NCBI GenBank assembly: GCA_965116905.1
Contig: OZ220732.1
Span: 1,440,001-1,504,000, forward strand
Source of the DNA: Longimicrobiales bacterium
GTDB lineage: Bacteria > Gemmatimonadota > Gemmatimonadetes > Longimicrobiales > Gaopeijiaceae
Length of the DNA: 64,000 bases
Reading direction: 5' to 3'
Within the stretch, counting starts at the first letter, position 1. The number at the start of each line of letters is the position of its first letter. Position numbers and translations under genes: made by a program. Below, piece by piece: positions 4,565-59,559 of this stretch. The notes under the pieces are model-generated. The model was not told the origin of the DNA. It ran no database searches and saw nothing but the letters and a program-made list of their open reading frames with translations.

Positions 4565-6394
4565 ATGTCCGACACCGTCAACTACTTTGCCAACCCGGCG
4601 GATATCCCGGATGGAACGCTGGTCGATCTCTTTTTCGACACTTGCGAGCGGTTTTCGGACCACGACGCCTACAATCCGGCCGGAACGGGGGGAGCCCTCA
4701 CCTATGCCAGGGTGCGGGACGAGGTTCGACGTGGCGCCGCCGCCCTCGCGCACTTCGGGATCAAGCGCGGCGACCGTGTCGCCATTCTTGCGGAAAACAG
4801 GCTGGAATGGGCACTGGCGGACTGGGCATGCCTGTGTGCCGGGGCGGTCGACGTACCCATCTACAGCACCCTCCCCGCGGCCCAGGTCGCCTACATCCTT
4901 GAGAACTCGGGCGCTTCGCTGGTCTTCGTTTCCGACGCCGAGCAGCATGAAAAGGCGCGGGAGGCCATTGCGCGCGCGGGGCTGGACCTGACGGTCGTCG
5001 TGTTCGACGGTGGGGCGGACCTGGACGGCGCCACAAGCTGGGACGATTTCGTTGCAGCCGGTGACGGTGCGTCGATGAACGATTTCGTGGCAGAGGCGCG
5101 CCGGGCCCGGCCGCACGATCTCGCCACGATGATCTACACCTCGGGTACCACGGGTACGCCCAAGGGGGTCATGCTGACCCACAACAACCTCAGCTCGAAC
5201 ATCTGGGCGACCGGCGAGATCCTGACGCTGGGCAGCAACGACTGCAGCCTGTCGTTCCTGCCCCTGTCCCATGTTCTCCAGCGCATGGTGGACTACGTCT
5301 TCTTCGCGGCAGGGTGCACGGTGACGCACGGCTCGATCGAGACCGTCCCCGCCGACATGAAACGCCTGCGGCCGACCGTGCTGGTCTCGGTGCCGCGCCT
5401 GTACGAAAAGGTCTACCAGAGCGTACTGGATGCGGGCGGGGTGAAGGGGAAGCTGGTATCCTGGGCGGCGGGAGTGGGGCGCCGCGTGGCGCTGCACAGG
5501 GAGCGCGGTGTGAAGCCCCCGTTCCTTCTGAACCTGCAGTACGGGATCGCGGACCGGCTGGTCTTCGGGAAGATTCGCGAGGCCGTGGGCGGGCGGCTCC
5601 GGTACTTCGTGAGCGGCGGGGCGGCGCTCGCGCCCGAGATCAACCGGTTCTTCCTGGGGGCGGGCATCACCATCCTGGAGGGATACGGCCTCAGCGAGAC
5701 GTCTCCCGTCACGAACGTGAACTCGTTCGAGCACTTCAGGATCGGGACGGTGGGCCGTCCGGTGCCCGGCACCGAGATAAGGATCGACGATGACGGGGAG
5801 ATCCTGATTCGGGGTCCGCAGGTGATGATGGGGTACTACGGGTTGGAAGAGATGACCCGCGAGGTGATTTCGGAGGACGGCTGGTTCAGCACCGGAGACA
5901 TCGGTGAACTGAGCAGCGACGGGTATTTGAAGATTACCGACAGGAAGAAGGACCTCATCAAGACCTCGGGCGGAAAGTACGTCGCGCCGCAGGCGATCGA
6001 GAACCTGCTGAAGAAGAACCCGTACGTCGACCAGGCGGTGGTCGTCGGGGAGGGACGGAAATTCTGCTCGGTGCTGGTTGTCCCGGCCTTCGAACGGCTA
6101 CAGATCTGGGCGGCCGAGGCAGGCCTCGAAACCGGCGACGTGGGGGCCCTCCTGGCGCAGTCCCGGTCCCGCGAACTGCTAAGGGACCAGATTCTGGGGG
6201 AGATGCGGGACCTTGCCCGGTTCGAGACGCCCAAGAAGATCGGGCTTTTGAGCGAGCCGTTCACGGTCGAAAACGGTACCCTTACCCCGACCCAGAAGGT
6301 GAAGCGCTCCGTCGTCACGGAACGGTATGCCGAGCTGGTCGATTCCTTCTATCGGCCCGAGTCCGTCGAGCAGACGATCTTTTTGGCGTCGTGA
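4565..6394 (+). CDS. Long-chain fatty acid--CoA ligase (AMP-dependent synthetase)
   Basis: IYTSGTTGTPKGV, EGYGLSET, TGDIG, ITDRKKDLIKTSGGK, TLTPTQKVKR. Confidence 0.93.
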   Translation: MSDTVNYFANPADIPDGTLVDLFFDTCERFSDHDAYNPAGTGGALTYARVRDEVRRGAAALAHFGIKRGDRVAILAENRLEWALADWACLCAGAVDVPIYSTLPAAQVAYILENSGASLVFVSDAEQHEKAREAIARAGLDLTVVVFDGGADLDGATSWDDFVAAGDGASMNDFVAEARRARPHDLATMIYTSGTTGTPKGVMLTHNNLSSNIWATGEILTLGSNDCSLSFLPLSHVLQRMVDYVFFAAGCTVTHGSIETVPADMKRLRPTVLVSVPRLYEKVYQSVLDAGGVKGKLVSWAAGVGRRVALHRERGVKPPFLLNLQYGIADRLVFGKIREAVGGRLRYFVSGGAALAPEINRFFLGAGITILEGYGLSETSPVTNVNSFEHFRIGTVGRPVPGTEIRIDDDGEILIRGPQVMMGYYGLEEMTREVISEDGWFSTGDIGELSSDGYLKITDRKKDLIKTSGGKYVAPQAIENLLKKNPYVDQAVVVGEGRKFCSVLVVPAFERLQIWAAEAGLETGDVGALLAQSRSRELLRDQILGEMRDLARFETPKKIGLLSEPFTVENGTLTPTQKVKRSVVTERYAELVDSFYRPESVEQTIFLAS

Positions 6395-6425
6395 CGGGTA
6401 TAGGACGTCTGGACGGGCACCTGAC

Positions 6426-6758
6426 ATGACGGCTGGGAGCGAGACCGGCGTTGTGACGGTGCTGATGACCGCGCCGGGCGTGGAAGTTGCCGAGGCGGTC
6501 GTGCGCCGGTTGCTGGACGACCGGCTCATCGCCTGCGGGAACGTGTTGCCAGGAGCGGTCAGCCTGTATCGCTGGGAGGGAGAGGTCCACCGCGACGAGG
6601 AAGCGCTCGTCGTCCTCAAGACCCTGCGCCGCCTGGTGCCCGGCATGCTGGAGCGGGCAGGTGAATTGCACCCGTACGACGTGCCCGAACTCCTCGTCCA
6701 GCCGGTGGTGGCCGGATGCGCGGACTATCTGGAGTGGGTGGAAAATGAGTGCTGCTGA
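6426..6758 (+). CDS. cutA: Divalent-cation tolerance protein CutA
   Basis: LIACGNV...SLYRWEG...ELHPYDVPE...YLEW. Confidence 0.92.
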   Translation: MTAGSETGVVTVLMTAPGVEVAEAVVRRLLDDRLIACGNVLPGAVSLYRWEGEVHRDEEALVVLKTLRRLVPGMLERAGELHPYDVPELLVQPVVAGCADYLEWVENECC

Positions 6759-9252: not shown

Positions 9253-9258
9253 TGCCGC

Positions 9259-10677
9259 TTATCTCTGCTGGTGCCGCAGGAAGCCCTTTACAGCAACCCG
9301 GTTGTCGTCGGTGCTCACCGTGCCATCGACTTCGTAGACCCCCAGAACGGGAAGGATGGGGCCCGTGGCGTCCAGGGTGAGGTGATGGGCGCTCACGGAC
9401 TGGAACTCGCCGCGGAGGGTGCCATCCGAGGAACGGAAGCGCCAGAGCACCGGGATGTCGCGGCGCGCCCGCTCGAAGCTTCGGGTCTCGCTCCAGGTCA
9501 CGGAGACCGATGGCCAGAATCGCTCCTCTGCGCCCAGTCGAGCCCAGGCCCGGTACTCGTCGGATCCGTCCCCGTTCGAGAGGAGGATCTGCAGCTGGTC
9601 GTCGCCAAGGAGCAGGGCCCACTCACCCGACCCATCGGATGAACCGGCACGCGCCCCCGCGGCGTCCAAAACCCACCCGGACCTTTCCTCCCCTCCGAGG
9701 CGCGTGATTCCGTTCAGGAGCCGATACCGCCCCCCGCGCGAGTCGATCCACTCGACGACGGCGTCGCCGACCCTTACGGACACGTCGCGGATCCCGTCCT
9801 GGTAGTAGATCTCGCGCAGTACGTCATCCTGTTCCACGATCATGCGCGTAGGACCCCTGGGGATGATGCGCCACGGGGCGCGCCGGGTGGGCGCGGTGGC
9901 CCAGGCTTCTTCCGTGAGCATGATCCAGTGGGCGCCCCTTCCCACCCATCCCCGCATGGTGCGGTGGGTGCTGTCGGCAAGTTCGAGGTTTTCGAAGTCC
10001 CAGGACACGAAGACCGTGGTGTCCTGTTCGGTGTCGACGAACACGACGGTTCTATGGTAGGTGGTGGACACCTCGGCCTCGGGGGTCGCTTCGGCGGTGA
10101 CGGAGCCGGCCGACGGATCCTCCGCGCTGGTGGGGGCCGGGTCGGGTGAACCGCGGTCACAGGCCAGCGCCAGCGTGCACGCCGTCATGAGGACAACCGT
10201 CGGGGCGGTGTGGGGTCGGGCGGCCAGCACTTGCTCGGGACGTACCGCCAATGAGCGGTCCAGCTCGCGGAAGAATCGATCGATCCGGCGCTGGTTGATC
10301 GGCAGTCTTCCTTCGTCGGCCACGTTGCGGATGGACATGTCGACGCGCGTCTGCCCGTCCGCGTCCAGCTTGACCGAAATCAGCACGGTGGCTGCCAGTG
10401 GAATCGGCCAGCTGGTCACGTCGGCTGCAACGAGGCCGATCTGATCGTCCCACCGGGCGATCTTCCATCCCTTCAGTCCGCCACCGGCCAACGCGACAAT
10501 TGCATCCCAGACGGTGCCGAACGGGATCGCATAGGTGCGTCCCACGAGACCGGGATTGTCGGAATCGGCACTGGTCCGGACGTCCTGCCCCGCGAATCCC
10601 TTCCAGAATCTCACAGTTGTCCGATGTTCAAGTATTGCTCCGTGTGTGGCGGCAGGTGCCGAGGTGTCCCATGGCAA
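9259..10677 (-). CDS. Hypothetical protein: DUF1499-like N-terminal domain fused to a lipoprotein-like C-terminal region (start 10677 or 10614)
   Basis: N-terminal region resembles DUF1499 (TRVDM...NQRRIDRFF); internal hydrophobic segment with lipobox-like LALAC near 10190-10160. Confidence 0.6.
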   Translation of the reverse strand: MPWDTSAPAATHGAILEHRTTVRFWKGFAGQDVRTSADSDNPGLVGRTYAIPFGTVWDAIVALAGGGLKGWKIARWDDQIGLVAADVTSWPIPLAATVLISVKLDADGQTRVDMSIRNVADEGRLPINQRRIDRFFRELDRSLAVRPEQVLAARPHTAPTVVLMTACTLALACDRGSPDPAPTSAEDPSAGSVTAEATPEAEVSTTYHRTVVFVDTEQDTTVFVSWDFENLELADSTHRTMRGWVGRGAHWIMLTEEAWATAPTRRAPWRIIPRGPTRMIVEQDDVLREIYYQDGIRDVSVRVGDAVVEWIDSRGGRYRLLNGITRLGGEERSGWVLDAAGARAGSSDGSGEWALLLGDDQLQILLSNGDGSDEYRAWARLGAEERFWPSVSVTWSETRSFERARRDIPVLWRFRSSDGTLRGEFQSVSAHHLTLDATGPILPVLGVYEVDGTVSTDDNRVAVKGFLRHQQR

Positions 10678-10892
10678 AGCTGTTCAAGGGCGGCATATGA
10701 GGTCAACACCGGAGTGGTCCGAGGCGTCCGGCGAGGCTCTGCGGTTCGGTCGCCCCGGGGGCCCATGGTGCTGTGAATGTACGCGACCGCTGCGGGGAGC
10801 GCTTTCCTCCGGCGGACGTAAGCCGCAATCTTGATTGTGGTGTGAGGCGCGAGTGCCGGATCGGAAATCGCCCGGCATTGAACGGAGAGGGA

Positions 10893-12200: not shown

Positions 12201-12213
12201 GCCGGGAGGCCTC

Positions 12214-12942
12214 GTGAGCGACGAGTCGGGAGTCCGGCCGCGGGTGCTCGTGATCGAGGACGACGCCGATATCGCGGCGTTGGTCGCCTACCAGTTGACG
12301 CGGGCCGGGTACCGAGTCGAGACCGCGGCGGACGGGACCGAGGGACTGGATGCACTCCACCGCGACATCCCCGACCTGGTCGTCCTGGACCGGATGCTGC
12401 CCGGCCTTTCGGGTGACGAGGTGCTGGGGGCGATTCGGCAGGAGCCGGCCACCCGTTCCGTGCCGGTCCTCGTGGTGAGTGCGAAGAGGGAGCAGTTCGA
12501 GCGAATCGAGGGTTTCGAACTGGGAGCGGACGACTATCTGACCAAACCGTTCAGTCCCCGTGAAATGGTCCTGCGGGTCGACGCCATACTCAGACGCGCC
12601 CGCGCGGACGCTTCGGCGTCGGGCCATGGGGGACGCGTGCTGAAGGCCGGGCCTCTCAGCGTCGACCTTGCTGCCATGCAGGTCACCCTGAACGGTGAGG
12701 AGGTGCCGGTCACCCCCACCGAGCTGCGCCTGCTCAAGACGCTCATGGAGCGCCGTGGACGCACTCAGGATCGCCACCAGCTTCTCGCGGAGGCGTGGAG
12801 CGCCGATCCCGATGTGATCCGGCGCATTCGCACCCGCACGGTGGACATGCACATTCGCCGTCTGCGCACCAAGCTCGGCGTCGCCGGAGAGTGGATCGAG
12901 ACCGTGCGCGGCTTCGGCTACCGGTTTCGAGGATCGGAATGA
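12214..12942 (+). CDS. phoB: OmpR-family response regulator PhoB
   Basis: REC domain (LVVLDRMLP, GADDYLTKPF) plus wHTH (RTVDMHIRRLR, ETVRGFGY); lies upstream of the pst genes. Confidence 0.88.
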   Translation: MSDESGVRPRVLVIEDDADIAALVAYQLTRAGYRVETAADGTEGLDALHRDIPDLVVLDRMLPGLSGDEVLGAIRQEPATRSVPVLVVSAKREQFERIEGFELGADDYLTKPFSPREMVLRVDAILRRARADASASGHGGRVLKAGPLSVDLAAMQVTLNGEEVPVTPTELRLLKTLMERRGRTQDRHQLLAEAWSADPDVIRRIRTRTVDMHIRRLRTKLGVAGEWIETVRGFGYRFRGSE

Positions 12943-12955
12943 TTCGAGGATCGGA

Positions 12956-14710
12956 ATGAGGGTCCCGCTTCGCCCGGCCGTCGCAGGTGTGGGGGCCGGG
13001 GTGGTGGTGATGATCGCGACCGTGGCATGGAGCGTCACGCGCGTGGTCGGGACGGGCGCGATGTACCGCGAGAGCCGGCAGCATCTCGAACCGGCGGTTC
13101 GGCTGGGCGCGGAGCAGTTGCGGGGGTCCCGGGACGTACCGCTGGACAGCGTCGCGAACGCGCTCGCGCTGGCCACCGGTTATCGGGTCAGTGTCTTCGA
13201 CGCGCAACTCGCGCTGATGGCCGATTCGGACCTCGGGCCCGCCCACGCGGACACGATTGCGGATCCCGCCCGCCGCCCGGAGGCAGCTGCCGCGCTGCTG
13301 AGGGTCGACGGCTTTGCGCAGCGGGTCAGCTCGCTTGATGGCCAGGCCTATCTGTTCAGCGCGACCCGGGTGTACTGGCGCGGCGAGAGCATCGTGATCC
13401 GCTTCGGTGCACCCGTCGCCCCCATCCGTGAGGCTGCGGCTAGGGCAGCGGTTTGGGTGGCGCTTGGCGTAACGGTCGCGGGACTGGTCATGCTCGTGCT
13501 TCTGCACCGGTTCGTGGGTGCGGGGGCGACTTCGGTCGACGACACCAGACTCCTTCTCCAGCGATTGGGCGCAGGGCAGTTCTCCGGGCCGCGCGTCAAG
13601 CTCTCGAGGATTGCGGAGCTGGCCCGGCTTGCTTCGGCCGCCAACCGGGTTCGTGGTGAAATGGAAGAGCAGGTCAACCGCGTGACGCGTGAGCGGGACG
13701 AACTGGCACAGCTCATGGACGAGGTAGCCGAGGGCCTGATCGCCCTTACGGACGACGCCCGGATCCTGAGGATCAATCCCGCCGCGATGCAGTTGCTCGG
13801 ACTGGCGGATGTGCTGCCGTTTTCGCCGATCGGGGCCGTGGTCAGGGACCCGGAACTCCGGGACGTGCTGGAGAGTTCGGTGGTCCGGCCGGAGGCGCGA
13901 CTGGAACTTGCAGTGGGAGACCGGGAACTGGAGGTTCGGACCCGGCGGGGTACGGAGGGAGGGTCCGTGGTTCTTCTGGTGGACATTACGGAGATCCGCC
14001 GTCTCGAGGCGGTACGTTCCGATTTCGTGGCCAATGCTTCACACGAATTGAAGACGCCGTTGACCGTTGTCCGGGCTGCGGCGGAGACCGTGCTCGACGA
14101 GGGGCTGCCCGGGGGGCTGCGACAACAGTTCCTGCGTTCCATCGAGAGCAACACGGTCCGGCTGCAGCGGCTCGTGGACGACCTTCTGGATCTGTCGCGG
14201 TACGAATCCGGCGCCTGGCGACCCGACCGACAGCCCTTCAGCGCCGAGCGCGTTGCCTGGTCGGCGTGGGAGGAGCTTGAATCGAAGCGTGCCGGGGGCG
14301 ATGTCGGTTTCCGGGTGGAGGGCGGCGGCGAGGGATTGGGCGACGAGGCCGCCGTCTACCAGATCTTCCGCAACCTTTTCGAGAACGCGCTGCGGTACGT
14401 CCCGGAAAAGGAGGGGCAGGTCGTTGTGGACATCCGTGCGGCAGGCGACACCCTGACCATATCGGTTCGGGACAACGGAACCGGTATTCCGGCAGCGTCG
14501 TTGCCCAGGATCTTCGAACGATTCTACCGGGTGGACGCGGCCCGCTCCAGGGAGGAGGGAGGGACGGGACTGGGGCTGGCCATTGTGCGGCACCTGGTTT
14601 CGAGCATGGGCGGCACTGTCGCTGCCGAGAGCACCTGGGGTTCAGGTACGACGATCACGTTCACCGTTCCCCTGCACGGCGCGGTCCCCGCCCAGGTGGC
14701 GTTGGCATGA
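12956..14710 (+). CDS. phoR: Phosphate regulon sensor histidine kinase PhoR
   Basis: Two TMs, HAMP/PAS-like region, DFVANASHELKTPL, RIFERFYRVDAARSR, GGTGLGLAIV. Confidence 0.88.
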   Translation: MRVPLRPAVAGVGAGVVVMIATVAWSVTRVVGTGAMYRESRQHLEPAVRLGAEQLRGSRDVPLDSVANALALATGYRVSVFDAQLALMADSDLGPAHADTIADPARRPEAAAALLRVDGFAQRVSSLDGQAYLFSATRVYWRGESIVIRFGAPVAPIREAAARAAVWVALGVTVAGLVMLVLLHRFVGAGATSVDDTRLLLQRLGAGQFSGPRVKLSRIAELARLASAANRVRGEMEEQVNRVTRERDELAQLMDEVAEGLIALTDDARILRINPAAMQLLGLADVLPFSPIGAVVRDPELRDVLESSVVRPEARLELAVGDRELEVRTRRGTEGGSVVLLVDITEIRRLEAVRSDFVANASHELKTPLTVVRAAAETVLDEGLPGGLRQQFLRSIESNTVRLQRLVDDLLDLSRYESGAWRPDRQPFSAERVAWSAWEELESKRAGGDVGFRVEGGGEGLGDEAAVYQIFRNLFENALRYVPEKEGQVVVDIRAAGDTLTISVRDNGTGIPAASLPRIFERFYRVDAARSREEGGTGLGLAIVRHLVSSMGGTVAAESTWGSGTTITFTVPLHGAVPAQVALA

Positions 14711-15717
14711 CGGTACTGTTCGTCCGCGTCGGCCGGCGCGTCACCGGGTTGATCGTTGCCGTTCTGCTGTGCGGATGCGCGCCCGACGGGGGGCGGATCG
14801 TCGTGGTCGACGGCTCCAGCAGCCTCTACCCGCTTGCCGAAGCGGTCTCCGAGAGGTTTGCCCGCGAGCACACGTCGGCACGGATCGTCATCCGTGTTTC
14901 GGGTTCGGGCGGGGGACTGCGGCGATTCTGCGAGGACGAGGCCGACATCGCCGGTACCTCCCGGCTGATGACCGCCGCCGAAACGGCCCGCTGTCGCGCG
15001 GCGGGGGTCCGCTTCCTGGCCCTTCCCGTTGCCCGCGACGGCGTGGTCATGGTGACCAACCCGGCGCACGAGGCGGTAGCGTGCCTGACGCTCTCCGAGC
15101 TCGACCGGATCTGGGGGCCGGACGCCTCCGTAGTGACGTGGCGGGATCTCAGGCCCGCGCTTCCTGCGGAAAGGGTTCGCCTCTTCGGGCCGGGCCCGGA
15201 CTCGGGAACGTTTCGCTTCTTCACGCGGGTGGTCGTGGGCCGGCCCGAAGCCAGCCGCATGGACTACCACCCGACCGAGGACGACCACCTGATCGCCCGG
15301 GGGGTCGCCGGGGACCGCTGGGCGCTCGGGTACTTCGGGTCCGCGAACCATGCGGCCCACGCGGACCGATTGCGGCTGCTCGCGGTCGACACGGGGTTCG
15401 GGTGTGTGTTGCCGACGCCGGCTGCGATCCGCGACGGCCGCTACAGCCCGCTCTCCAGAGATCTATACATCTACGTCAAGCGCGTGCTGCTGGCCGACGA
15501 CGATGTCTACAACTTCGTCGAGCACTTTGTCTCGGCCAGCGAGTCGCTCGCGGACGACACGGGTTACGCGCCCCTTCCCGCGGCCGAATACGCGCGCAAC
15601 CGGGCACTGTTGGACGAGGCGCGCGGCGAGGCGCTGGCACGGTCGGTGCGAACGCCGTACGATCCCCGCGTGCTCGTGGAGGGTACCCGACGGGTGCCGA
15701 GGCCGAGTCCGTCATGA
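14707..15717 (+). CDS. pstS: Phosphate ABC transporter substrate-binding lipoprotein PstS (divergent)
   Basis: Lipobox LCGC, DGSSSLYP, GPGPDSGTF, GYFG, YSPLSRDLYIYV. Confidence 0.85.
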   Translation: MTVLFVRVGRRVTGLIVAVLLCGCAPDGGRIVVVDGSSSLYPLAEAVSERFAREHTSARIVIRVSGSGGGLRRFCEDEADIAGTSRLMTAAETARCRAAGVRFLALPVARDGVVMVTNPAHEAVACLTLSELDRIWGPDASVVTWRDLRPALPAERVRLFGPGPDSGTFRFFTRVVVGRPEASRMDYHPTEDDHLIARGVAGDRWALGYFGSANHAAHADRLRLLAVDTGFGCVLPTPAAIRDGRYSPLSRDLYIYVKRVLLADDDVYNFVEHFVSASESLADDTGYAPLPAAEYARNRALLDEARGEALARSVRTPYDPRVLVEGTRRVPRPSPS

Positions 15718-16631
15718 CACGACGCGGTGTGTCCGGTGCGGGGACAGCGTCGCGCGCGGCCGGCGAGCGTCTGGTGGCGCATGTCCTTCTGGCCTGCACG
15801 GTGGTGGCCGTGGTCATCCTCGGCGCCGTGCTGACGGTGCTCCTGCGCGAGGCCGGCCTGTTCTTCGCCGCAGTCTCGCCGTGGCGGTTCTTCACGGAGA
15901 TCACGTGGGCGCCCGCTGCGGCGGAGCCCGGGTTCGGCGTGTTGCCGCTCCTCGTGGGAACCATCCAGATCGCTGTCGGCGCTGCGGTGTTCGCGTTGCC
16001 CGTCGGACTGATGACCGCGGTGTACCTGCACCAGTACGCGGGCGGCCGCACAGTCCGCCTGCTGAGCGGTGTCACAGCAGTGATGGCGGGTGTTCCGACC
16101 GTTGTGTATGGCCTGTTCGCGCTCAACTTCGTGACCCCGGCCCTCCAGGTCCTGTGGCCCGGGGTCGAGGCGTTCAACGCGTTGTCCGCCTGCATCGTGG
16201 TGGGGCTGATGATCCTGCCCACGGTGGCGGTGCTGTCGCGCGAAGCACTGGACTCGGTGCCGGCCCCGCTCCTGGACGCGGGATTGGCGCTGGGTGCCCC
16301 GAAGGGACGGGTGGTGACCCGGATCCTTCTGCCCGCCGCTTCGGGGGGCATCCTCGCGGCCGTACTGATCGCCGTGGCCCGGGCCGTCGGCGAGACGATG
16401 ATCGTCAGCCTTGCCGCGGGGAACGAGGCCCGATTGACGTGGAGCCCATTCGAGGGACTTCAGACGCTGACAGCCTTTCTAACCCAGCTCGGCGTAGGTG
16501 ATGCGGCGACCGGAACCGGTGAGTATCGGGCGTTTTTCGCCGTCGGGGCGGTTCTGTTCGCCGGCACGTACGGGATTCACGCGGCCGGCAGAATGCTCCT
16601 GTCCCGCGGTGCGCGGAGGCTGGCTCGATGA
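15714..16631 (+). CDS. pstC: Phosphate ABC transporter permease PstC
   Basis: FGVLPLLVGT, AGVPTVVYG, ARAVGETMIV; ATG 15714 overlaps the pstS stop. Confidence 0.9.
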   Translation: MTRRGVSGAGTASRAAGERLVAHVLLACTVVAVVILGAVLTVLLREAGLFFAAVSPWRFFTEITWAPAAAEPGFGVLPLLVGTIQIAVGAAVFALPVGLMTAVYLHQYAGGRTVRLLSGVTAVMAGVPTVVYGLFALNFVTPALQVLWPGVEAFNALSACIVVGLMILPTVAVLSREALDSVPAPLLDAGLALGAPKGRVVTRILLPAASGGILAAVLIAVARAVGETMIVSLAAGNEARLTWSPFEGLQTLTAFLTQLGVGDAATGTGEYRAFFAVGAVLFAGTYGIHAAGRMLLSRGARRLAR

Positions 16632-17473
16632 GTCGCCCGTTCTCACGACGCGATTCGGTCGGCGCAGCCTGCGGCGTTGCCGCACTCGTCCTGTTGCTCG
16701 GCTTTCTGGTATTCGCCGCGTACCTGGGGTTCACCGCTTCGCAGGTCATCGGCATCGACTTCCTGCGCGAGACACCTTCCGGTGCGGCGAACAGCGCGGG
16801 CATCGGACCGGCGCTGGCGGGAACGCTCTGGCTCCTGCTTCTGACCGCCGTGCTTGCATTGCCCATCGGGATCGGCACGGCGATCTACCTGGAAGAATAC
16901 GCCCCGCGCACACGCTTGACCGTGTTCATCGAGTCGGCCGTGGCCAATCTCGCCGGGATTCCAGCGGTGGTCTACGGAATCGCGGGATTGGCGCTGTTCG
17001 TTCGCGCGCTTGGGATGGGACCGACGATCCTCGCTGGCGGCTGCACGCTCGCGGTGCTGGCGCTGCCGGTGGTCATCGTGACTTCCAGGACCGCCATTCG
17101 CCAGGTTCCGGAGGGTCTGCGGCTGGCCGCGTACGGGCTTGGCGCCACACGCTGGCAAGTCGTTCGCGACCAGATCCTCCCGGCGGCCGGTCCCGGCATC
17201 CTGGCGGGCTGCTGCACGGCATTCACGCGGACGGTTGGGGCGGCCGCGCCACTTCTGGTCATAGGGACCGCTTCGTTCGTGAGCTTCGCCCCGCAGACAC
17301 CCGCGCATCCGCTGGTCTCGCTGCCGACGCAGATCTTCTCGTGGGCGACCCGCTCGCAGGAGGATTTCACCGCGGTGGCAGCCGGTGCGGCGGTCGTGCT
17401 GCTTCTGTTGCTGCTCACCATGAATCTCGTCAGCGCGTCACTCGTGCGGCGGTTGGGCGCGGCCTCCCGATGA
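16628..17473 (+). CDS. pstA: Phosphate ABC transporter permease PstA
   Basis: AGIGPALAGT, AIYLEEYA, NLAGIPAVVYG, LGATRWQVV, LPTQIFSW. Confidence 0.9.
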   Translation: MSRPFSRRDSVGAACGVAALVLLLGFLVFAAYLGFTASQVIGIDFLRETPSGAANSAGIGPALAGTLWLLLLTAVLALPIGIGTAIYLEEYAPRTRLTVFIESAVANLAGIPAVVYGIAGLALFVRALGMGPTILAGGCTLAVLALPVVIVTSRTAIRQVPEGLRLAAYGLGATRWQVVRDQILPAAGPGILAGCCTAFTRTVGAAAPLLVIGTASFVSFAPQTPAHPLVSLPTQIFSWATRSQEDFTAVAAGAAVVLLLLLLTMNLVSASLVRRLGAASR

Positions 17474-18243
17474 GCGGCCCGTCCGCCCCGACGGATGCGC
17501 CGGTGCTGACAGCCGAACGGCTCAGCGTGCGGTTCGGCCGGAATATCGCGCTCCGCGACGTGTCCCTGGCCATCCCGCGGGGGCGGATCGTCTCGATCAT
17601 GGGCCCGTCGGGATGTGGCAAGACGACGCTGCTGCGCTGCTTCAACCGCATGAACGAGCTCGTATCAGGGGCCGAGACCAGCGGAACGGTCCGCTTCGAC
17701 GAAATGGATCTGTACGGCCCCGATGTCGATCCTGTAGAGGTGCGGCGCCGCATCGGAATGGTCTTCCAGGAGACCACGCCCTTCCCGAAGTCGGTCTTCG
17801 ACAACATCGCATTCGGTCCTCGCGCGAGCGGTTTCACGGGGGACCTTCAAGGTCTGGTGGAGGAGGTACTCACGGCCGTGGGCCTGTGGTCGGAGGTTGC
17901 CGACGACCTGGACACGCCCGCCCTGGAGCTGTCGGCGGGACAGAAGCAGCGGCTCTGCATTGCCCGCGTGCTGGCGCTCAAGCCCGATGTCCTGCTGCTG
18001 GACGAGCCCACCTCGGCGCTCGACCCCGAGGCCACGGCGCGCATCGAGTCGATCATCCGCGCGCTCAGTCCCCAATACACGATCGTGATCGCCACCTACA
18101 ACCGCTGGCAGGCGGCCCGGCTGTCGGATCTCACGGCGTTTCTGGACCGTGGCGAGTTGCTGGAGTATGGTCTCACCGAGATCCTGTTCACCAACCCGCG
18201 CGAGGCGCGCACGGAGTCCTACCTGACCGGGCGAACCCAATGA
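17470..18243 (+). CDS. pstB: Phosphate ABC transporter ATP-binding protein PstB (non-canonical H-loop)
   Basis: GPSGCGKTT, FNRMNEL, DPVEVRRRIGMVFQ, LSAGQ, LLDEPTSALDP. Confidence 0.9.
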   Translation: MSGPSAPTDAPVLTAERLSVRFGRNIALRDVSLAIPRGRIVSIMGPSGCGKTTLLRCFNRMNELVSGAETSGTVRFDEMDLYGPDVDPVEVRRRIGMVFQETTPFPKSVFDNIAFGPRASGFTGDLQGLVEEVLTAVGLWSEVADDLDTPALELSAGQKQRLCIARVLALKPDVLLLDEPTSALDPEATARIESIIRALSPQYTIVIATYNRWQAARLSDLTAFLDRGELLEYGLTEILFTNPREARTESYLTGRTQ

Positions 18244-18932
18244 CGGAACTGCATCGCCCCCGAGGCTCCTTCGATACCGAGCTCAACCGTCTGCAGCAGA
18301 TGTTGCTGGACATGGCGGGCCGCGCGGAGGAACTCGTGCGCATGGCCATGGAGGGGCTGACCGATCGGGACCCCCTGGTTCCCCTGAGGGTTCGCCGCGC
18401 CGACGATCGTCTCAACGCCCTGGAGATCGAGCTCGACGAGCGCGTGCTGGAGCTGCTCGCGCTGCAGCAGCCGATTGCGGGCGACCTGCGGCTGGTCCTG
18501 GTGGCGCTGAAGGCGTCGAACGACATCGAACGGATCGGCGACCACGCCGTGAACATCGCCAATGCCTGCGAGCGCATGACACGGTATCCTCCGATGCCCG
18601 ACATCCTCGAAGTGGCCGAGATCAGCGGCCAGGTCCGGCAAATGATGCGCAAGGCGCTGGACGCAATGGTCAACCGCGACGCCGAGACGGCCAGGGAGGT
18701 CATTGCGGAGGATGACCGCGTGGACGACCTGCGCTGGTCCGCTTTCCGGATCATCGTCTCGTACATGCTCGAACAGCCCCGCTACATCGGCCCCGGGCTC
18801 GAGTTGATCCTTGTGGTTCAGAACCTGGAGAGGATCGGCGATCTGACGACGAACATCGCCGAGGACGTGGTCTTCCTGGTCGAGGGGACATCGATCAAGC
18901 ACGCAGCCAGCAAGGCGGTGGGCCCGGCATGA
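18240..18932 (+). CDS. phoU: Phosphate signalling protein PhoU
   Basis: LALQQPIAGDLR, DIERIGDHA, LERIGDLTTNIAE. Confidence 0.93.
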   Translation: MTELHRPRGSFDTELNRLQQMLLDMAGRAEELVRMAMEGLTDRDPLVPLRVRRADDRLNALEIELDERVLELLALQQPIAGDLRLVLVALKASNDIERIGDHAVNIANACERMTRYPPMPDILEVAEISGQVRQMMRKALDAMVNRDAETAREVIAEDDRVDDLRWSAFRIIVSYMLEQPRYIGPGLELILVVQNLERIGDLTTNIAEDVVFLVEGTSIKHAASKAVGPA

Positions 18933-19759
18933 GCGGTGCCGTGGAGGAGTTGCTGAGCCAGGTGACCACCGAGCCGGGACCCGAGCCGGCCGTCGAGTTT
19001 CCCTTCCAGCGAGGCCGGGTCGCGCTCATCACCGGGGGTTCGAGCGGAATCGGCAGGGCGACGGCGATCGGATTCGCCCGCGGAGGTGTCCACATCGCGT
19101 TCAACTACCTGGACACCGGGGCTGCCAGCCGGCGCGCCGCCGTCGAAACCGCGGGGACGCTCAAGGAGAGCGGAGTCCGGGTCTTCGCGCGCTCGGGAGA
19201 CGTGCGCGATTCCGCCTGGGTCCGCGAATTCGTCGCATCGGCTCACGAGCGGCTCGGGGGGCTGCATTTTCTCGTCAACAACGCCGGTGTGGGCCGCGAC
19301 CGGGCCCTGTGGCGCATGAGCGACGAGGAGTGGGCGTCGGTCATCGACACCAACCTCACGGGAGCTTTCTACTTCACCCGTGAAGTCGCGCCCCACCTCC
19401 GTGAACAGGAGTTCGGCAAGATCGTCAACATCTCTTCCGTGCACGGGCTCTCGAGCGAATTCGGTCTTGCGAACTACTGCTCGTCGAAGGCCGGGATGAT
19501 CGGGCTTACGCGCAGCACGGCAGTGGAACTCGGGCCCTCGAACATCAACGTGAACGCCGTGGCGCCGGGCTACATCCGTACGACCCGGCTTACGGACCGG
19601 GTTCCTGCGGAGATCCTGGACCGGGCCCGGGAGGCGAGCGTACTCGGGCGGCTGGGCGATCCGCAGGATGTGGTGTCGGTGATCCTGTTCCTCTGCTCGG
19701 AGATGGCGCGCCATATTACCGGGGCCGTGATTCCCGTTGACGGGGGATACCTGATATGA
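18929..19759 (+). CDS. Classical SDR (FabG/acetoacetyl-CoA reductase-like)
   Basis: [19 protein letters not shown] (YxxxK), VNAVAPG, VDGG. Confidence 0.9.
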
Positions 19760-19772
19760 AGGACTGGAAGCC

Positions 19773-20153
19773 ATGAAGGACTGGAAGACCGAGCTGACAC
19801 CGGAACAATACCGCGTCACCCGCAAGGGGGGGACCGAGCGGGCGTTCACCGGCGAATACTGGGACCACAAGGAGGACGGAACCTATCGCTGCGTGTGTTG
19901 CGGCCAGCCCCTCTTCGAGTCGTCCGACAAGTTCGACTCCGGCACGGGATGGCCAAGCTTCACCCGGCCCGCGGCCGCCGAGAACGTCGGCGAGAAGGAG
20001 GACCGCAAGTTCTTCATGCGCCGGACCGAGGTCGTGTGCAACCATTGCGACGCCCATCTGGGACACGTGTTTCCGGACGGACCGGGGCCGGGGGGACAGC
20101 GCTACTGCATCAACTCCGCGTCGCTGGACTTCGAATCCGCGGGCGGGGAATGA
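19773..20153 (+). CDS. msrB: Peptide-methionine (R)-S-oxide reductase MsrB
   Basis: [35 protein letters not shown], two CxxC. Confidence 0.97.
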
Positions 20154-20165
20154 GTATATGAGTAT

Positions 20166-21182
20166 ATGAGTAAGACGATCACGGTGATCCCCGGTGACGG
20201 GATCGGCCCGGAGGTGACCGGTGCGGTCCTGCGCATCCTCGAGGCCGCGGACGCGGACCTCGAATACGACCGGCAGACGGCGGGAATCGGGGCGGTGGCC
20301 TCGCACGGCAACCCGCTCCCCCAGGAGACCGTCGATTCGATCGACGCCAACGGGGTGGCGCTGAAGGGTCCGCTCACCACGCCGTCGGGGTCGGGATTCC
20401 GTTCCATCAACGTCGCCATTCGCAAGCACTTCGATCTCTTCGCCAACGTCCGCCCGGTTCGCACCATGCTGCCCGGCGGGCGCTACGAGGACATCGACCT
20501 CGTCCTGATCCGGGAAAACACGGAGGGCCTGTACGTCGGCGTCGAGCACTTCATCGGGATGGACCGGGACCCCAAGGCGGCGGCGGAATCGGTGATGATC
20601 ACCACGCGCTACGGCTCCGAGAGGATCGTCCGCTTCGCGTTCGACTACGCGGTCGCGAACGGCCGGCGCAAGGTGACGCTCGCGCACAAGGCCAACATCC
20701 TGAAGCACACGCAGGGGCTGTTCCTGGAGGTGGGCAAGCGCATGGCCGAGAACTACGCCGACAGGGTCGGGTTCGAGGACCGGATCATCGACGCCACGGC
20801 CATGTACCTCGTCCTGGACCCGTACCGGTTCGACGTCCTTGTCATGGAGAACATGTTCGGCGACATCCTGAGCGATCTGATGGCGGGGCTCGTGGGCGGG
20901 CTGGGGTTTGCGCCGGCAGGCAACATCGGCGAGGGCCACGCGGTCTTCGAGGCCGTGCACGGCTCCGCGCCCGACATCGCGGGGCAGGGCGTCGCCAACC
21001 CGACGGGACTGCTGCTCTCCGCTTGCATGTTGCTGGACCATGTGGGCCAGGCCGAAGCGGCCGCGCGCGTGCGCGCGGCGGTGTCCTCGGTGATCGGCGA
21101 CGGTGCGGCCCGCACGCACGACATGGGCGGCACGCACGGCACGGCGGCGTTCACCGATGCGGTCATCGGGGCGCTGGCGTGA
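20166..21182 (+). CDS. Isocitrate/isopropylmalate dehydrogenase family protein (NAD-IDH-like)
   Basis: [47 protein letters not shown]. Confidence 0.92.
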
Positions 21183-21493
21183 GCACCGAGCCGCGTGCGG
21201 GGGACCTGACCTGCGGCCGGTGCGGGCGTGGATGCCGTGCCCGAGTGCTGGACCGCCATCTCTGGTGCGAGGACTGCGTGGCGGCCGGGCGGGGGGAGGC
21301 GGGGCGGGTGGGGTGGATCTGCGGTGCGGTGATGGCGGCCCTGTTGGCCGCGTGGATCTACTTCGTCCAGCAGCCCTCCGCGATGCTGCTCGGGGGCTGG
21401 ATCGGCGCCGTGCTGGCGACATTGTGGCTGGGTGCCCGGGCGGGACGGGAACTGACGTACGGGGTTCTGCGCTTCCGTCACAGGCCGCGTTGA
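21179..21493 (+). CDS. Small membrane protein with an N-terminal Zn-ribbon-like CxxC pair
   Basis: GTG overlaps the upstream stop; CGRC...CEDC followed by two TM helices. Confidence 0.6.
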
Positions 21494-21530
21494 GTCGAAA
21501 TTTGTGACCATCGATCCGGAGACGACTTGA

Positions 21531-22715
21531 ATGGCAGCCAAGTTCGACGGCACTGACTTCTACGATGTGGACTCGCTCCTGTCCGAAGAGGAGCGCATGG
21601 TCCGGGACACGATCCGGGATTGGGTCGAGGACCGGGTCATGCCGATTATCGGCGACGCGTACACCGAGCGGCGGTTCCCCACCGAGCTGATCCCCGAAAT
21701 CGGGGAACTCGGCATGCTGGGCGCCAACCTGCCCGCCGAGTACGGGTGTGCCGAACTCAACAACGTCTGCTACGGGCTCATCATGCAGGAACTCGAGCGC
21801 GGCGATTCCGGCATCCGGTCCTTCGTGTCGGTGCAGGGGGCGCTGGTCATGTACCCCATCTACGCGTTCGGCAGCGAAGACCACCGGCGAACCTGGCTGC
21901 CGGCGCTCGCGTCCGGGGAGAAGATCGGCTGCTTTGGCCTCACCGAGCCCGACTACGGGTCGAACCCCGTGGGCATGATCACGCGTGCCCGCCAGACCTC
22001 CGACGGCTGGGTGCTGAACGGCACCAAGATGTGGATCACCAACGGTTCGATGGCCGACGTAGCGGTGGTCTGGGCCCAGACCGCCGAGCCGGGTGACTCA
22101 CGGGGCATCCGCGGCTTCGTGGTCCCGACCGACACCCCGGGCTTCAGCGCCCGCGACCAGAAGGGGAAGCTGTCGCTCCTCGCGTCGGACACGAGCGAGA
22201 TCGTCCTGGAGGACGTGCACCTGCCCGCCGACGCCCTGATGCCGGAGACCTCGGGGATCAAGAACCCGCTGATGTGCCTGACCCAGGCACGCTACGGGAT
22301 CTCCTGGGGAGCGGTGGGCGCGGCCATGGGCTGCTTCCACGAGGCGGTGGACTACGCCGGCCAGCGCGTCATGTTCGACGGGGTCATCGCGGGGAAGCAG
22401 ATCCAGCAGGTGCGGATCGCCGACATGCTGACCTCGATCACGCAGGGGCAGCTGCTGTGCCTGCGGCTGGGGCGCCTGAAGGACCAGGGCACGATGACGC
22501 CGCAGCAGGTCAGTCTGGCCAAGCGCGCCAACGTGAACATGGCGTGTGACATCGCGCGCGAGGCGCGCCGTCTGCTCGGCGCCAACGGGATCCTCGCCGA
22601 GTACTCCGCCATGCGCCACATGGCCAACCTGGAGTCGGTGTACACCTACGAGGGGACCCACGACGTCCACTCGCTGATCCTTGGTCAGACGGTCACGGGG
22701 ATCTCGGCGTTCTGA
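21531..22715 (+). CDS. Acyl-CoA dehydrogenase, glutaryl-CoA dehydrogenase-like
   Basis: [47 protein letters not shown]. Confidence 0.9.
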
Positions 22716-22746
22716 AGGGGGGGGACCCTGAACGGCGCGAAGAGGG

Positions 22747-35951: not shown

Positions 35952-36391
35952 CGTCCGGCCACCGTCTCTGCAATCCGCTCCAGGCAGATCGTCCACCCCT
36001 CCTTGTGACCGTCCCGGTCATCGGGCGTCGGGAATCCGTCATGCGTCAGACGGATCTCGGTCCCATCCTCGACCGGCACCAGGTCGACCGTGACCACCGT
36101 CTCCGCGTTCATCGCGTGCGCCTCCTCCTTCCAGCCCCAAGTGTACACGAGCCGCCGAGGCGGGTCGACTTCACGGTAGGTGCCGTGGGCGGTGAACGGC
36201 CCGCCCTCCACGTGCATGCGGATGGAGTAGTGCCCGCCCACCCGCAGGTCGATCTCCACGTCCACGCGCGCGCCCGGGTCGGGGCATGTCCAGAGCTTCA
36301 CCTGCTCCGGGTTGGTCCACGCCTCGAAGACCCGCTCGGGACTTGCGTCCAGGGTGCGAACGATGTGCAGTGCTCCTGTCGTCTCGGTCAT
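35948..36391 (-). CDS. SRPBCC/AHSA1 domain protein
   Basis: ASPERVFEAWTNPE, DLRVGG, PPRRLVYTW, H.EGW. Confidence 0.9.
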   Translation of the reverse strand: MTETTGALHIVRTLDASPERVFEAWTNPEQVKLWTCPDPGARVDVEIDLRVGGHYSIRMHVEGGPFTAHGTYREVDPPRRLVYTWGWKEEAHAMNAETVVTVDLVPVEDGTEIRLTHDGFPTPDDRDGHKEGWTICLERIAETVAGR

Positions 36392-36398
36392 CGGTCCG

Positions 36399-36731
36399 TC
36401 ACTCCCCTTCCTTCAGGTACCGGGCCAGCGCGTCCATCTGTGTGGACCAGTAGCGCTGGTGGGCCTCCAGCCAGTCCTTCGCCTCGGCGACAGCGGCGGG
36501 TTCGAACCGGCAACGCCGCGACCTCCCCTCCTTCTTCCGGCTGATCAGCCCGGCGTCTTCGAGGATCCGCACGTGTCGAGACACCGCCACGAGCGATATG
36601 TCGAAGGGTTCGGCCAGCGCGGTGACCGACGCGATCTCACCCCGGGCGAGGCGCCCCAGAATGGCGCGCCGGGCCGGATGGGACAGGGCGGCAAAGGTGC
36701 GGTCGAGGGTGTCTTCCTGGACGGCAGGCAT
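36399..36731 (-). CDS. ArsR/SmtB family transcriptional regulator
   Basis: FAALSHPARRAIL...VSRHVRILEDAGLI...GR. Confidence 0.92.
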   Translation of the reverse strand: MPAVQEDTLDRTFAALSHPARRAILGRLARGEIASVTALAEPFDISLVAVSRHVRILEDAGLISRKKEGRSRRCRFEPAAVAEAKDWLEAHQRYWSTQMDALARYLKEGE

Positions 36732-41186: not shown

Positions 41187-41468
41187 ATGACTACCGTGTC
41201 GATCTCTGCCCTCAAGGCCAACCTCTCGCGATACCTTCGCCATGTCCGGCGGGGCGGTGAAGTTCAGATCCTCGACCGCGGCCTGCCGGTTGCCCGGTTG
41301 ATGGCTCCCAGGCCGGGGGGCGACGACGCGGTCCGCGACCGGCTGGTAGGCGATGGCGTGCTCCGGCCCCGCGCGGGCCCGGCCATGTCGATCCTCGACA
41401 GCCCTCCCCTCGAGCTGCCGACAAGCATTTCGCAGGCCCTCGCGGAGGACCGGACTGACCGGCTGTGA
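41187..41468 (+). CDS. Type II antitoxin, Phd/YefM (prevent-host-death) family
   Basis: MTTVSISALKANLSRYLRHVRRGGEVQILDRGLPVARL. Confidence 0.9.
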   Translation: MTTVSISALKANLSRYLRHVRRGGEVQILDRGLPVARLMAPRPGGDDAVRDRLVGDGVLRPRAGPAMSILDSPPLELPTSISQALAEDRTDRL

Positions 41469-57732: not shown

Positions 57733-57785
57733 TCTCGCCTTCCTTCGTGTAGAGTGTCGCGGCCCGCGTGCGGCTACAGGTCCCG

Positions 57786-58595
57786 TTACAGATCCCGCCT
57801 GCGCATGTTTACGTAGGCCAGCCCCAGGAAGATTACCACGTACGCCATCGCCGCGACCAGCGGGATCCACAGATCCGGGTACGCCATCAGGTCCTGGCCG
57901 CGTTCCGCCCGCGCGGCGTTCGTGCGCGCCAGCACCTCGGGGTAGTACAGAGCTGTGTCGGTGATCGTCTGGTACAACTGGCCGGGCAGGAACTCGAACA
58001 CGGGCTCGAGCGCGTTCCACCGCAGCGAGAGCAGCGCCGTGACGATCTGCTCGCAGATGAAGTAGAGGAAGAGCAGACCGAGCCCGGCGCCCGCCGCCCG
58101 GATCAGCGCCGAGATCATCAGCGCAGCCGTTCCCCACAGCGACAGCGCGGCAACGAACCCCAGCATGTAGTTGAAGTCCATGGGCTCGATGAAGGCGCCG
58201 CCGCCCGAACCCGGAGTCCGGGCCACTTGCAGGATGCCGATCACCGTCGGGATCGCGATGAAGACGGCGATCATCGGCACCAGCAACAGGACCTTCCCCC
58301 AGTAGAACTGCTCCTTGCCGAGCCCGTCGATGACGTTCTGCCGGGCGGTTCGCCACCGAAACTCCGGGGCGAAGAGCAGGATCATCAGCGCGGCCAGGAA
58401 CACCGGCCCCAGGTTGATCGCGGGCTCGATGATGCCGCTCCAGGCGTCGGGGAACGAAACCTCCGAGGACGAGCCGCCCGACGACACGATCGCGATCGCA
58501 TTGAACGCGGTGAACACGCCCAGGGTCACCCAGCACGCGGGGCGCTTGACCGCCTTGAGCGTCTCGATCCGCCACAGAACGCGCGGCAGCCTCAT
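57786..58595 (-). CDS. ABC-2 type transporter permease
   Basis: EFRWRTARQNVIDG motif, six TMs, ATGA-coupled to the ATPase. Confidence 0.85.
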   Translation of the reverse strand: MRLPRVLWRIETLKAVKRPACWVTLGVFTAFNAIAIVSSGGSSSEVSFPDAWSGIIEPAINLGPVFLAALMILLFAPEFRWRTARQNVIDGLGKEQFYWGKVLLLVPMIAVFIAIPTVIGILQVARTPGSGGGAFIEPMDFNYMLGFVAALSLWGTAALMISALIRAAGAGLGLLFLYFICEQIVTALLSLRWNALEPVFEFLPGQLYQTITDTALYYPEVLARTNAARAERGQDLMAYPDLWIPLVAAMAYVVIFLGLAYVNMRRRDL

Positions 58596-59539
58596 GAGGC
58601 GAACTCCGTCAGCGACGCCGCGCCCACCCCTTCGCCCTCGCCTTCGTCCTCGCCGGTCAGGTCCATGAAGGCGTCCTCCAGGCTCCGGTGCCGGCGCGCG
58701 AGGTGCGAGACGTAGATCCCCTGGCCCGCGAGGTACCGGTTGAGGGCCGCGAGGTCGTCCGACGCCAGCGCGACGACCAGCCCGTCGTCGGACGCGCGCA
58801 CGGACGTTGCCTCTGGAAAGGCCTCCAGGGCCGCGCGCAACGCCTCGTCATCTTCCGCCCGCACGACCGCGGTGATCTCGCCGCCGACGATCTCGGCCAC
58901 CGTCCCCGTGCCCACGACCCGACCCTTCCTCACAATCGAAACGTGGGTGCAGGTGCGCTCCACCTCCCACAGGAGATGGCTCGACAGGAAGATCGTCTTT
59001 CCGCGGTCCGCCAGCAGCCGGATGATGTCGCGGACCTCCTTCATGCCCTTCGGATCCAGCCCGTTGGCCGGCTCGTCGAGCACGATCAGCTCGGGGTCGT
59101 TCAGCATTGTGGCCGCCAGCGCAAGCCGCTGCTTCATCCCCAGCGAATAGGTCCGAAAGCGATGCTTCCCGCGCCCGCGCAGCCCCACGATATCCAGACA
59201 TTCCTCGATCCGCGCCTTGCCGATTCCCTTGATCGCCGCAGCGATCCGCAGATTGTCCCGGCCGCTGAGGTAGGGATAGAAGTTCGGCGTCTCCAGCGTG
59301 GCCCCGACCCTCGCGCGGGCGGTCAGGAGGTCCCGCGGGGCGCCTGCGCCGAAGAGTCGAAAACTCCCCGCCGTGGGCTTGATGATGCCCATCAGCATCC
59401 CGATCGTCGTGGTCTTGCCGCTGCCGTTCGGGCCCAGGAAGCCGAAGACCTGGCCCTGCTCGACCGTGAGCGAGACGCGGTCGACGGCCAGGACCGCGGG
59501 GAAGCGCTTGGTGAGCCCGGTGGTTTCGATTACGGTCAC
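58592..59539 (-). CDS. ABC transporter ATP-binding protein (BcrA/CcmA-like)
   Basis: GPNGSGKTT, YSLGMKQR, LDEPANGLDP, LSSH. Confidence 0.95.
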   Translation of the reverse strand: MTVIETTGLTKRFPAVLAVDRVSLTVEQGQVFGFLGPNGSGKTTTIGMLMGIIKPTAGSFRLFGAGAPRDLLTARARVGATLETPNFYPYLSGRDNLRIAAAIKGIGKARIEECLDIVGLRGRGKHRFRTYSLGMKQRLALAATMLNDPELIVLDEPANGLDPKGMKEVRDIIRLLADRGKTIFLSSHLLWEVERTCTHVSIVRKGRVVGTGTVAEIVGGEITAVVRAEDDEALRAALEAFPEATSVRASDDGLVVALASDDLAALNRYLAGQGIYVSHLARRHRSLEDAFMDLTGEDEGEGEGVGAASLTEFAS

Positions 59540-59559
59540 GTCAGGCGATCACCCGCATG

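Follow-up and report, generated by a model that had tools for sequence, protein, structure and literature searches.

The stretch of DNA analyzed here (the window, 64,000 nucleotides, G000:C1:1440001-1504000) comes from a Longimicrobiales bacterium whose genome, G000, is a single 4.21-Mb contig of 67.7% GC, and it contains seven junctions at which the gap between two co-directional genes is filled by micro-ORFs, open reading frames (ORFs) of 3-12 codons that begin at the stop of one gene and end at the start of the next. The original prediction, made from the sequence alone, was that selection filters duplications at such junctions so that ribosomes are handed on through micro-peptides; we find that selection on frame is supported genome-wide, with controls, but that hand-over and the avoidance of an overrun into the next gene are indistinguishable. 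The host is sponge-associated; public runs with a named organism that contain the stretch are sponge metagenomes, and the nearest relatives of the IDH encoded in the window carry the labels Longimicrobiales or Gemmatimonadota.

Genes were predicted with a purpose-written caller based on a hexamer model, whose upstream score is restricted to -20..-5 and which gives no reward for overlaps; it returns 3281 genes in G000, with 488 convergent pairs and 2305 co-directional junctions, 439 of them direct -4 overlaps. Most of the gene names given earlier for the window fit NCBIfam (phoBR, pstSCAB, phoU, SDR, msrB, cutA, the IDH family, acyl-CoA ligase and ABC ATPase, several of them below the curated cut-offs), and the arsR/SRPBCC names agree with HTH_20/AHSA1 matches; 'GCDH', in contrast, holds only as an acyl-CoA dehydrogenase. 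No family match was found for the 'CC-protein' or, in Pfam and NCBIfam, for the small gene that precedes GCDH, and an Rfam scan of the window gave no match.

All seven predicted bridges are present in the sequence at their predicted coordinates. Every stop-start hop in them is -4, 0 or +1, and five of the seven reach the downstream gene at -4. On the plus strand, a 12-codon GTG micro-ORF at 6391..6429 joins an acyl-CoA ligase (fadD-like) gene to cutA with a -4 overlap at each end. At phoB>phoR an exact 17-bp tandem copy that takes in the phoB 3' end and its ATGA overlap (12926..12959, plus strand) accompanies a 6-codon micro-ORF at 12939-12959, and at SDR>msrB a 17-bp tandem repeat with one mismatch, covering the ATGA overlap and the msrB 5' end (19756..19789, plus strand), accompanies a 6-codon micro-ORF at 19756-19776. 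The msrB>IDH junction holds an array (ATGAGTAT)n at 20150..20172 (plus strand) of period 8 and about three copies, with two 3-codon micro-ORFs at 20150-20161 and 20158-20169; the tandem repeats predicted at these three junctions were thus found with their periods. The bridge from the small gene to GCDH, again on the plus strand, takes two steps, a TTG frame at 21490-21507 and a GTG frame at 21504-21530 whose stop abuts the acyl-CoA dehydrogenase ATG. The remaining two lie on the minus strand: a 4-codon GTG micro-ORF at 36388..36402, leading from an ArsR-type HTH gene to an AHSA1/SRPBCC gene, and a 5-codon ATG micro-ORF at 59541..59558, between the CC-protein and ABC ATPase genes, which has a 1-nt gap at each end and derives from a 19-nt (1 mod 3) unit. 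The junctions named as unbridged at the outset (9252/9259, 29634/29675 and 39358/39376) are indeed unbridged.

The states of the plus-strand junctions in related genomes are those among the matches listed, and are partly by-eye readings. The direct ATGA overlaps expected as ancestral are found there: phoB>phoR is a direct ATGA in G005, G001, G014 and G004, SDR>msrB is a direct overlap in G005 and G001 (with an in-frame 15-nt version in G014), and msrB>IDH carries 0, 1, 2 and 2 extra 8-bp units in G001, G005, G014 and G000, respectively. Judged from this comparison, the ancestral state at these three junctions is a direct NTGA overlap. The fadD>cutA gap measures 12, 12, 30 and 31 nt in G005, G014, G001 and G000, and the relay, read by eye, is closed in these genomes via 2, 2, 2 and 1 hops; in G004, G009 and G012 it is not closed. 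The arsR>SRPBCC junction is closed in all four genomes that have both genes, with ORFs of 15, 12, 15 and 21 nt. The 59560 junction, where stop and start stand in the order stop-N-start (+1), has no 19-nt unit in G003, one in G000 and two in G013, and G005 has a different, closed ORF of 24 nt; in G014 it is not closed. The two-step bridge to GCDH, which by eye is open in G005 but has a single abutting frame that closes it in G001 and G014, is the weakest case; we regard it as doubtful and possibly of chance origin. Bridges hold closure even though their length and peptide differ among relatives.

Variation within the species was read from contigs of runs X1-X7 (X3 is an RNA run, of which the contigs were used); a raw-read run, X13, gave almost no cover of the stretch. 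The 17-nt copy at phoB>phoR is present in X1 and X2 and absent in the X3-X7 contigs, X5 has one or more extra 17-nt units at SDR>msrB, and msrB>IDH differs in length by -8 nt (X3), +6 (X4) and +45 (X5). All five indel variants in conspecific contigs at the three repeat junctions (-17, -8, +6, extra 17-nt units and +45) keep closure by length, which for the X5 variants presumes that the upstream ATGA is retained. At small gene>GCDH, in contrast, X3 and X6 are longer by 22 nt, a change that would open the relay. Because relatives and conspecific contigs have a plain ATGA overlap or other copy numbers, the three window repeats are, on this comparison, real, recent and variable.

Several further observations concern the same junctions. 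In L044 (G017) the SDR>msrB junction carries a 19-nt (1 mod 3) duplication whose second copy, read by eye, is one base short, so that the ATGA-to-ATGA distance is 18 and frame is restored; the loss looks like compensation. AT-rich, partly palindromic spacers replace the bridges at fadD>cutA in L037, L040 and L049 and at msrB>IDH in L036 and L042, and may be internal promoters or operators. The genes of the 59560 junction lie ~3 kb apart in G001 (G001:C1 860253-863336; L180). The small gene between IDH and the acyl-CoA dehydrogenase gene (21179-21493) has 104 codons and genus-wide homologues at 58-91% identity.

The geometry of closure follows from the duplicated unit itself, which, if it contains the overlap, sets one NTGA on the upstream stop and another on the downstream start; a unit of 2 mod 3 then yields a chimeric mini-frame ending at the second NTGA, and a unit of 0 mod 3 an N-terminal extension. 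The earlier claim that 2 mod 3 is the only closing class does not hold, since 0 mod 3 retains coupling as such an extension (11 of the 43 expansions of a direct overlap between G000 and G001, and SDR>msrB in G014) and, at 59560, a +1 junction is closed by its 19-nt unit. For a duplication of length p at a junction of gap g, p = g (mod 3) gives a micro-ORF and p = 0 a longer downstream protein, so that the closing periods mod 3 are 2 or 0 for -4 overlaps and 1 or 0 for +1 gaps. Among 4390 single duplications simulated over the 439 direct overlaps, 1372 remained direct, 1569 became bridged and 1449 were left open, and the simulated 1-mod-3 frames penetrate the next gene by a median of 329 nt.

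The codon phases of both genes coincide at 2 mod 3, and we therefore asked whether microhomology could favor such periods mutationally. It does not appear to: microhomologies of 1-5 nt across the 439 direct overlaps fall at 32-35% in each mod-3 class, longer ones are few and show no shift toward 2, and with this flat distribution codon-phase microhomology was rejected as a source of 2-mod-3 periods. Non-coding short tandem duplications occur at 4.55 per 10 kb in G000 and 0.91 in its congener G001 (loci L032 and L051-L170), a roughly fivefold excess that explains why bridges are many in this lineage; 12 of the 13 bridged expansions between the two genomes lie in G000. Loss of repair genes was rejected as the reason for the excess, Ku, MutS and MutL being present in five of five genomes, G000 and G001 included.

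Genome-wide, bridges are enriched over shuffled nulls, as had been predicted: with strict ATG starts they occupy 32 of 816 non-direct junctions (null means 11-21 under four nulls), and with lenient starts 83 of 689 (null means 45-63). Half or more of the lenient bridges are expected by chance, which bears out the initial caveat that GTG and TTG starts raise coincidence. Shuffles with random phase were rejected as the main test: any TGA, that of CTGA included (56/101/59), is followed by an excess of 1-mod-3 gaps, which inflates the effect. The comparison that carries our argument is a pseudo-start control, in which we read on, regardless of the initial codon, from 4 nt before the upstream stop ends; junctions already in frame, or with a further in-frame start at -30..+3 of the stop, are excluded (40/81 ATGA, 69/106 GTGA, 29/56 TTGA, 106/240 CTGA and 142/340 TAG/TAA junctions). 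At gaps of 1-60 nt, the frame closes at the next start in 30 of 41 ATGA junctions and overruns it in 3; the corresponding figures are 23 and 7 of 37 for GTGA, 8 and 11 of 27 for TTGA, 41 and 72 of 134 for CTGA pseudo-starts, and 46 and 131 of 198 for TAG/TAA. Overrun is thus far rarer after ATGA and GTGA than after CTGA (10/78 vs 72/134, p=1.2e-9), also when the comparison is restricted to high-scoring genes (4/66 vs 50/103), and the effect is graded by start codon, ATG>GTG>TTG. It is strong at gaps of 1-30 and 31-60 nt, marginal at 61-150 nt (p=0.047) and absent at 151-300 nt. Replications, all of them small and the kin among them not independent, give ATGA overrun of 1/13 vs 34/65 in G001 (2.42 Mb, junctions partly shared with G000), 0/17 in 19 other relatives at one region each, and 0/6 vs 14/26 at 42 more distant loci.

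Changes between orthologous junctions tell the same story. The comparison with G001 covers ~2.42 of 4.09 Mb, so that its counts refer to part of the genome; among 990 orthologous junctions, 43 expand a direct overlap, 11 of them in frame, 13 bridged, 4 open and 15 without a start at the stop. Where the start at the stop is retained and the frame changed (17 expansions), 13 close at -4/-1, compared with 52% in simulation (p=0.036), and the four that do not close end at -10, -11, -13 and +2. In five of the 13 bridged expansions the total length is 1 mod 3, and closure takes two hops that are each 2 mod 3 (20+20, 23+23, 8+8, 8+11 and 11+11). The 27 visibly duplicated overlaps in G000 comprise 19 that are bridged, 3 direct, 3 that end near the start and 2 open, and deep-overrun 1-mod-3 copies number 0 of 27 vs 31% simulated (~5e-5, a hand calculation). 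In spacers without a start at the stop, length changes are spread evenly across the mod-3 classes (52/43/46). The grading by start codon and the lack of a mutational bias to 2 mod 3 make selection on frame well supported, and we hold with high confidence that selection acts on the frame of junction expansions.

At one junction on the minus strand of G000:C1 (stop at 1748579), the direct overlap found in G001 gives way to an AT-rich insert of 56 nt, which includes an operator-like inverted repeat and is spanned by a closed chain of four micro-ORFs.

The account that we favor, and consider reasonably probable, is that the micro-ORFs arise as by-products of short duplications or insertions at stop/start overlaps and that selection would remove those in which the newly created frame fails to meet the next gene, with the result that a restarting ribosome reaches the downstream start. 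Ribosomes would reinitiate at each NTG in turn, the first and then the second, as termination-reinitiation work in E. coli and Haloferax suggests, and the peptide would be irrelevant, the frame alone mattering. If duplication were instead free, and closure a product of composition, codon-phase microhomology or gene-calling bias, one would expect several of the features that we do see: the chance level of half or more of the lenient bridges, the 1-mod-3 gap excess after CTGA as well, the same period of the 8-bp unit wherever it occurs, and a lean toward 2 in the periods at convergent gene ends (15/13/21). That neutral account is nevertheless largely refuted and very unlikely, given that microhomology is flat mod 3, that pseudo-start controls with the same caller and composition overrun in 54-66% of cases, and that the effect tracks start-codon strength and fades with gap length. 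Improbable to a slightly greater degree is the idea that certain bridges persist, for the sake of their peptide or through history, as true small genes or as scars left by genes deleted in frame; of 35 bridges whose junction has an orthologue in G001, 11 keep the same length and a few have similar peptides, but peptides vary freely at equal length, lengths differ among relatives, and direct overlaps in G001 account for 15 of the 35. Deleted-gene scars in particular were rejected, with no junction having a third gene between among 61 bridges (26 without an orthologue in the compared part of G001). That the repeats are assembly artefacts can be practically dismissed. Short tandem repeats do assemble poorly, but contigs from X1 (the best-matching run and possibly the source, an exact match) and from X2 (a separate study) cross all three repeats without a gap, those of X2 being identical over 11365-13777 and having 7 substitutions over 18530-20870; X3, X4 and X6 are likewise gap-free over SDR>msrB and X7 over msrB>IDH, and the 8-bp array is independently present in G014 and G013.

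The contender closest to our own holds that selection acts solely against out-of-frame overrun, in which restarted ribosomes block the next start or make junk protein; the downstream gene would start mainly from its own Shine-Dalgarno (SD) sequence, the sole convenient stop in a GC-rich spacer would be the TGA of the next NTGA, and closure would be a side effect. Overrun is indeed the depleted class, the starts downstream of bridges have decent predicted SD sequences, and in S. meliloti, according to the excerpted text of one study, overlapping upstream frames reduce expression because they occlude the main binding site (PMC13285730). Hand-over is a better fit to the multi-hop chains in which each stop lies on a new start (the four-hop AT-rich insert and the fadD>cutA variants) and to the +1 junction that closes with 19-nt units, although none of these is decisive, and the predicted SD that remains for IDH at msrB>IDH is weak (-2.2). 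We judge selection against overrun alone to be unlikely as the whole explanation.

A number of results weigh against our own account. The proportion of closed to early-stopping ('dropped') frames does not differ from that of the control in any gap class (p 0.17-0.62), a GC-rich spacer usually offering no stop besides the NTGA of the following gene; having shown no difference, the comparison was rejected as a discriminator of relay from overrun avoidance. Predicted SD pairing at the bridges' first starts averages -4.75 kcal/mol (n=65); convergent RTGA ends have much the same value (-4.8), direct overlaps have stronger pairing (-7.0 kcal/mol), and genes downstream of bridges retain a fairly good predicted SD of their own (-6.2 kcal/mol). 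CTGA controls often close if the next gene begins with RTGA (34/48 vs 27/29, p=0.02; 33/71 after TAG/TAA), closures that may represent relays in decay or initiation at CTG. Part of coupling persists at spacings of +2 to +14 nt even where there is no bridge, as described in excerpts of PMC10666635. The -14..+3 window that turns the 13 of 17 closing expansions into 17 of 17 was picked after the four misses were known. Duplication periods mod 3, proposed at first as a check, do lean to 2 (6/5/16 for classes 0/1/2) but are not clearly apart from those at convergent ends, and the G001 count (6/1/1) is too small for a repeat; as a weak measure, uninformative in G001, the raw period was dropped as principal test. 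Finally, all gene predictions rest on a purpose-written caller. On the other side, the same E. coli source reports a coupling loss of 80-90% or complete at +38 nt spacing and a variable one at +2 to +14 nt (PMC10666635), and the SD dependence of reinitiation is described as ranging from essential to none (excerpts of PMC6728339). With these points set against one another, hand-over to the downstream start would be the somewhat more probable benefit of closure.

The 8-bp array at msrB>IDH stands apart from the other repeats of the window. Its 20-mer occurs five times in the genome, and each of the other five window units tested occurs once. Besides window positions 20150-20172, arrays lie at G000:C1 315834, 628616, 1059072, 2952294, 3912915 and 4023395, with a palindromic form at 41399; of the seven G000 sites with period-8 arrays, three lie in sense orientation in the gaps of co-directional pairs, and the other four comprise two divergent, one convergent and one antisense site. 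The pattern, (RTGAGTAT)2-5, is AT-rich, mostly of three units, occurs in direct and palindromic forms and is intergenic or lies over start codons; the 7-mer core is a mirror repeat. It is present in 12 of 18 other genomes of the genus and in none of 12 outside it, two sites being conserved in G001, and an inverted form of the unit occurs in 4 of the 18 and covers the IDH start in G007 and G009. Its neighbors (peptidase S15, aspartyl protease, amidase, creatininase, DUF4159 and IDH) have no clear shared theme. The original view of this repeat as a local duplication of the overlap stands as regards the period-8 array, but the unit belongs to a dispersed, genus-wide family found also where a relay is impossible, and, its period being fixed whatever the context, the array is not an independent case of a selected period. 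The unit occurs in just one of the tested ATGA and GTGA junctions, and dropping the array leaves the main test unchanged. Tandem 8-bp repressor operators are known in MetJ-like arrays, and the array is probably a protein-binding site (a putative operator) or a dispersed minisatellite.

Four of the bridges fall within a chain of twelve co-directional genes on the plus strand, 12214..22715 (phoB, phoR, pstSCAB, phoU, SDR, msrB, IDH, the small gene and acyl-CoA dehydrogenase). As geometry, the claim of an unbroken coupling chain stands, with seven direct -4 overlaps and four bridges, but the last bridge needs TTG/GTG starts and an abutting stop; the chain is geometric, and co-transcription is putative. 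A promoter and terminator scan of 10500-23000 gave results near shuffle level, with a single promoter-like site, on the minus strand, where 1.0 was expected, and in the orthologous stretch of G011, G017 and G008 no pho genes were matched. Just upstream, at leuA-like>phoB (12197-12217), a CTG that overlaps the stop of the leuA-like gene begins a frame of 6 codons whose own stop lies on the phoB GTGA; the gap of 13 is retained in G005 and G001, the overlap is direct in G010, and the frame could be a decayed relay or have a CTG start. At 12130-12175 a 15-nt repeat lies within the C-terminal tail of the leuA/homocitrate-synthase-like gene and differs between conspecific contigs, with +15 in X3 and X7 and -15 in X5.

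Coupling at ATGA overlaps is documented in a few dozen reporter pairs; the wider questions are its genome-wide fitness weight and the behavior of post-termination ribosomes at an out-of-frame start. The frequent short duplications of this uncultured bacterium amount to a natural experiment, in which expansions survive by the endpoint of the restarted frame, graded by start codon. They suggest a route by which overlapping genes separate while coupling persists, and they are a warning that many 'small ORFs' at operon junctions may be frame keepers and not microproteins. As a tentative extension, possible though somewhat doubtful, frame closure (expansion equal to the gap or to 0, mod 3) might be a general prokaryotic rule; relay through disposable micro-peptides, up to four hops, would be routine, coupled operons could gain spacers, operators and repeats and still stay coupled, segregating duplications in this species would measure the fitness value of coupling, and the ATGAGTAT array would be a self-closing 8-bp minimal counterpart of the mycobacterial interspersed repetitive unit (MIRU), cost-free on a gene overlap. 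One unit of that array would then equal one start, two codons and one stop.

Among known systems, termination-reinitiation at NTGA (-4) and TRATG (-1) overlaps has the same geometry as both ends of the micro-ORFs described here (PMC6728339; PMC10666635; PMC12548453). That literature, as excerpted, treats gene pairs, whereas here coupling would cross a 3-12 codon frame made by local duplication; the excerpted part of a review on the subject contains no passage on duplication, and in the literature surveyed, which covered few subscription papers and no supplements, no paper on the duplicated overlap itself or on a genome-wide frame filter was found. Upstream ORFs and synthetic two-cistron designs likewise use a short frame to bring the ribosome to the next start (excerpts of PMC12548453 and PMC13285730), but their leaders have their own initiation site, and the bridges begin on the upstream gene's stop with no SD excess over control. 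The integron ORF-11/ORF-17 and the short ORFs of attC sites are described in excerpts of PMC8876359 as peptides that have no function themselves but allow translation to cross a spacer through termination-reinitiation; they are tied to recombination sites and hairpins, whereas our bridges lie in ordinary chromosomal operons with housekeeping flanks. A further parallel is the MIRU mini-ORF of mycobacteria, in which intergenic tandem units of variable copy number, thought to spare downstream expression, contain a small ORF with -4 coupling to the gene that follows (excerpts of PMC12548453, PMC5056196 and PMC4213456); the units quoted there, of 77 and 53 bp, are by our arithmetic both 2 mod 3. 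Like MIRUs, the bridge units have an internal sense ORF coupled at -4 downstream and a copy number that varies between strains. MIRUs, however, form a homologous family of 40-100 bp at 41 sites, described as mobile (excerpts of PMC5056196 and PMC4213456), whereas the window units measure 8-19 nt and most of the 27 genome-wide units 8-25 nt; five of the six window units are single-copy and derived from their own flanks, 75 bridging spacers share just pairwise 10-mers, the 8-bp unit, the sole dispersed one, also lies at convergent, divergent and antisense positions, and the host belongs to the Longimicrobiales (Gemmatimonadota) and is not mycobacterial. With units that are short, local and unrelated to one another, the bridges are, by sequence, not MIRUs, though they would work in a like manner.

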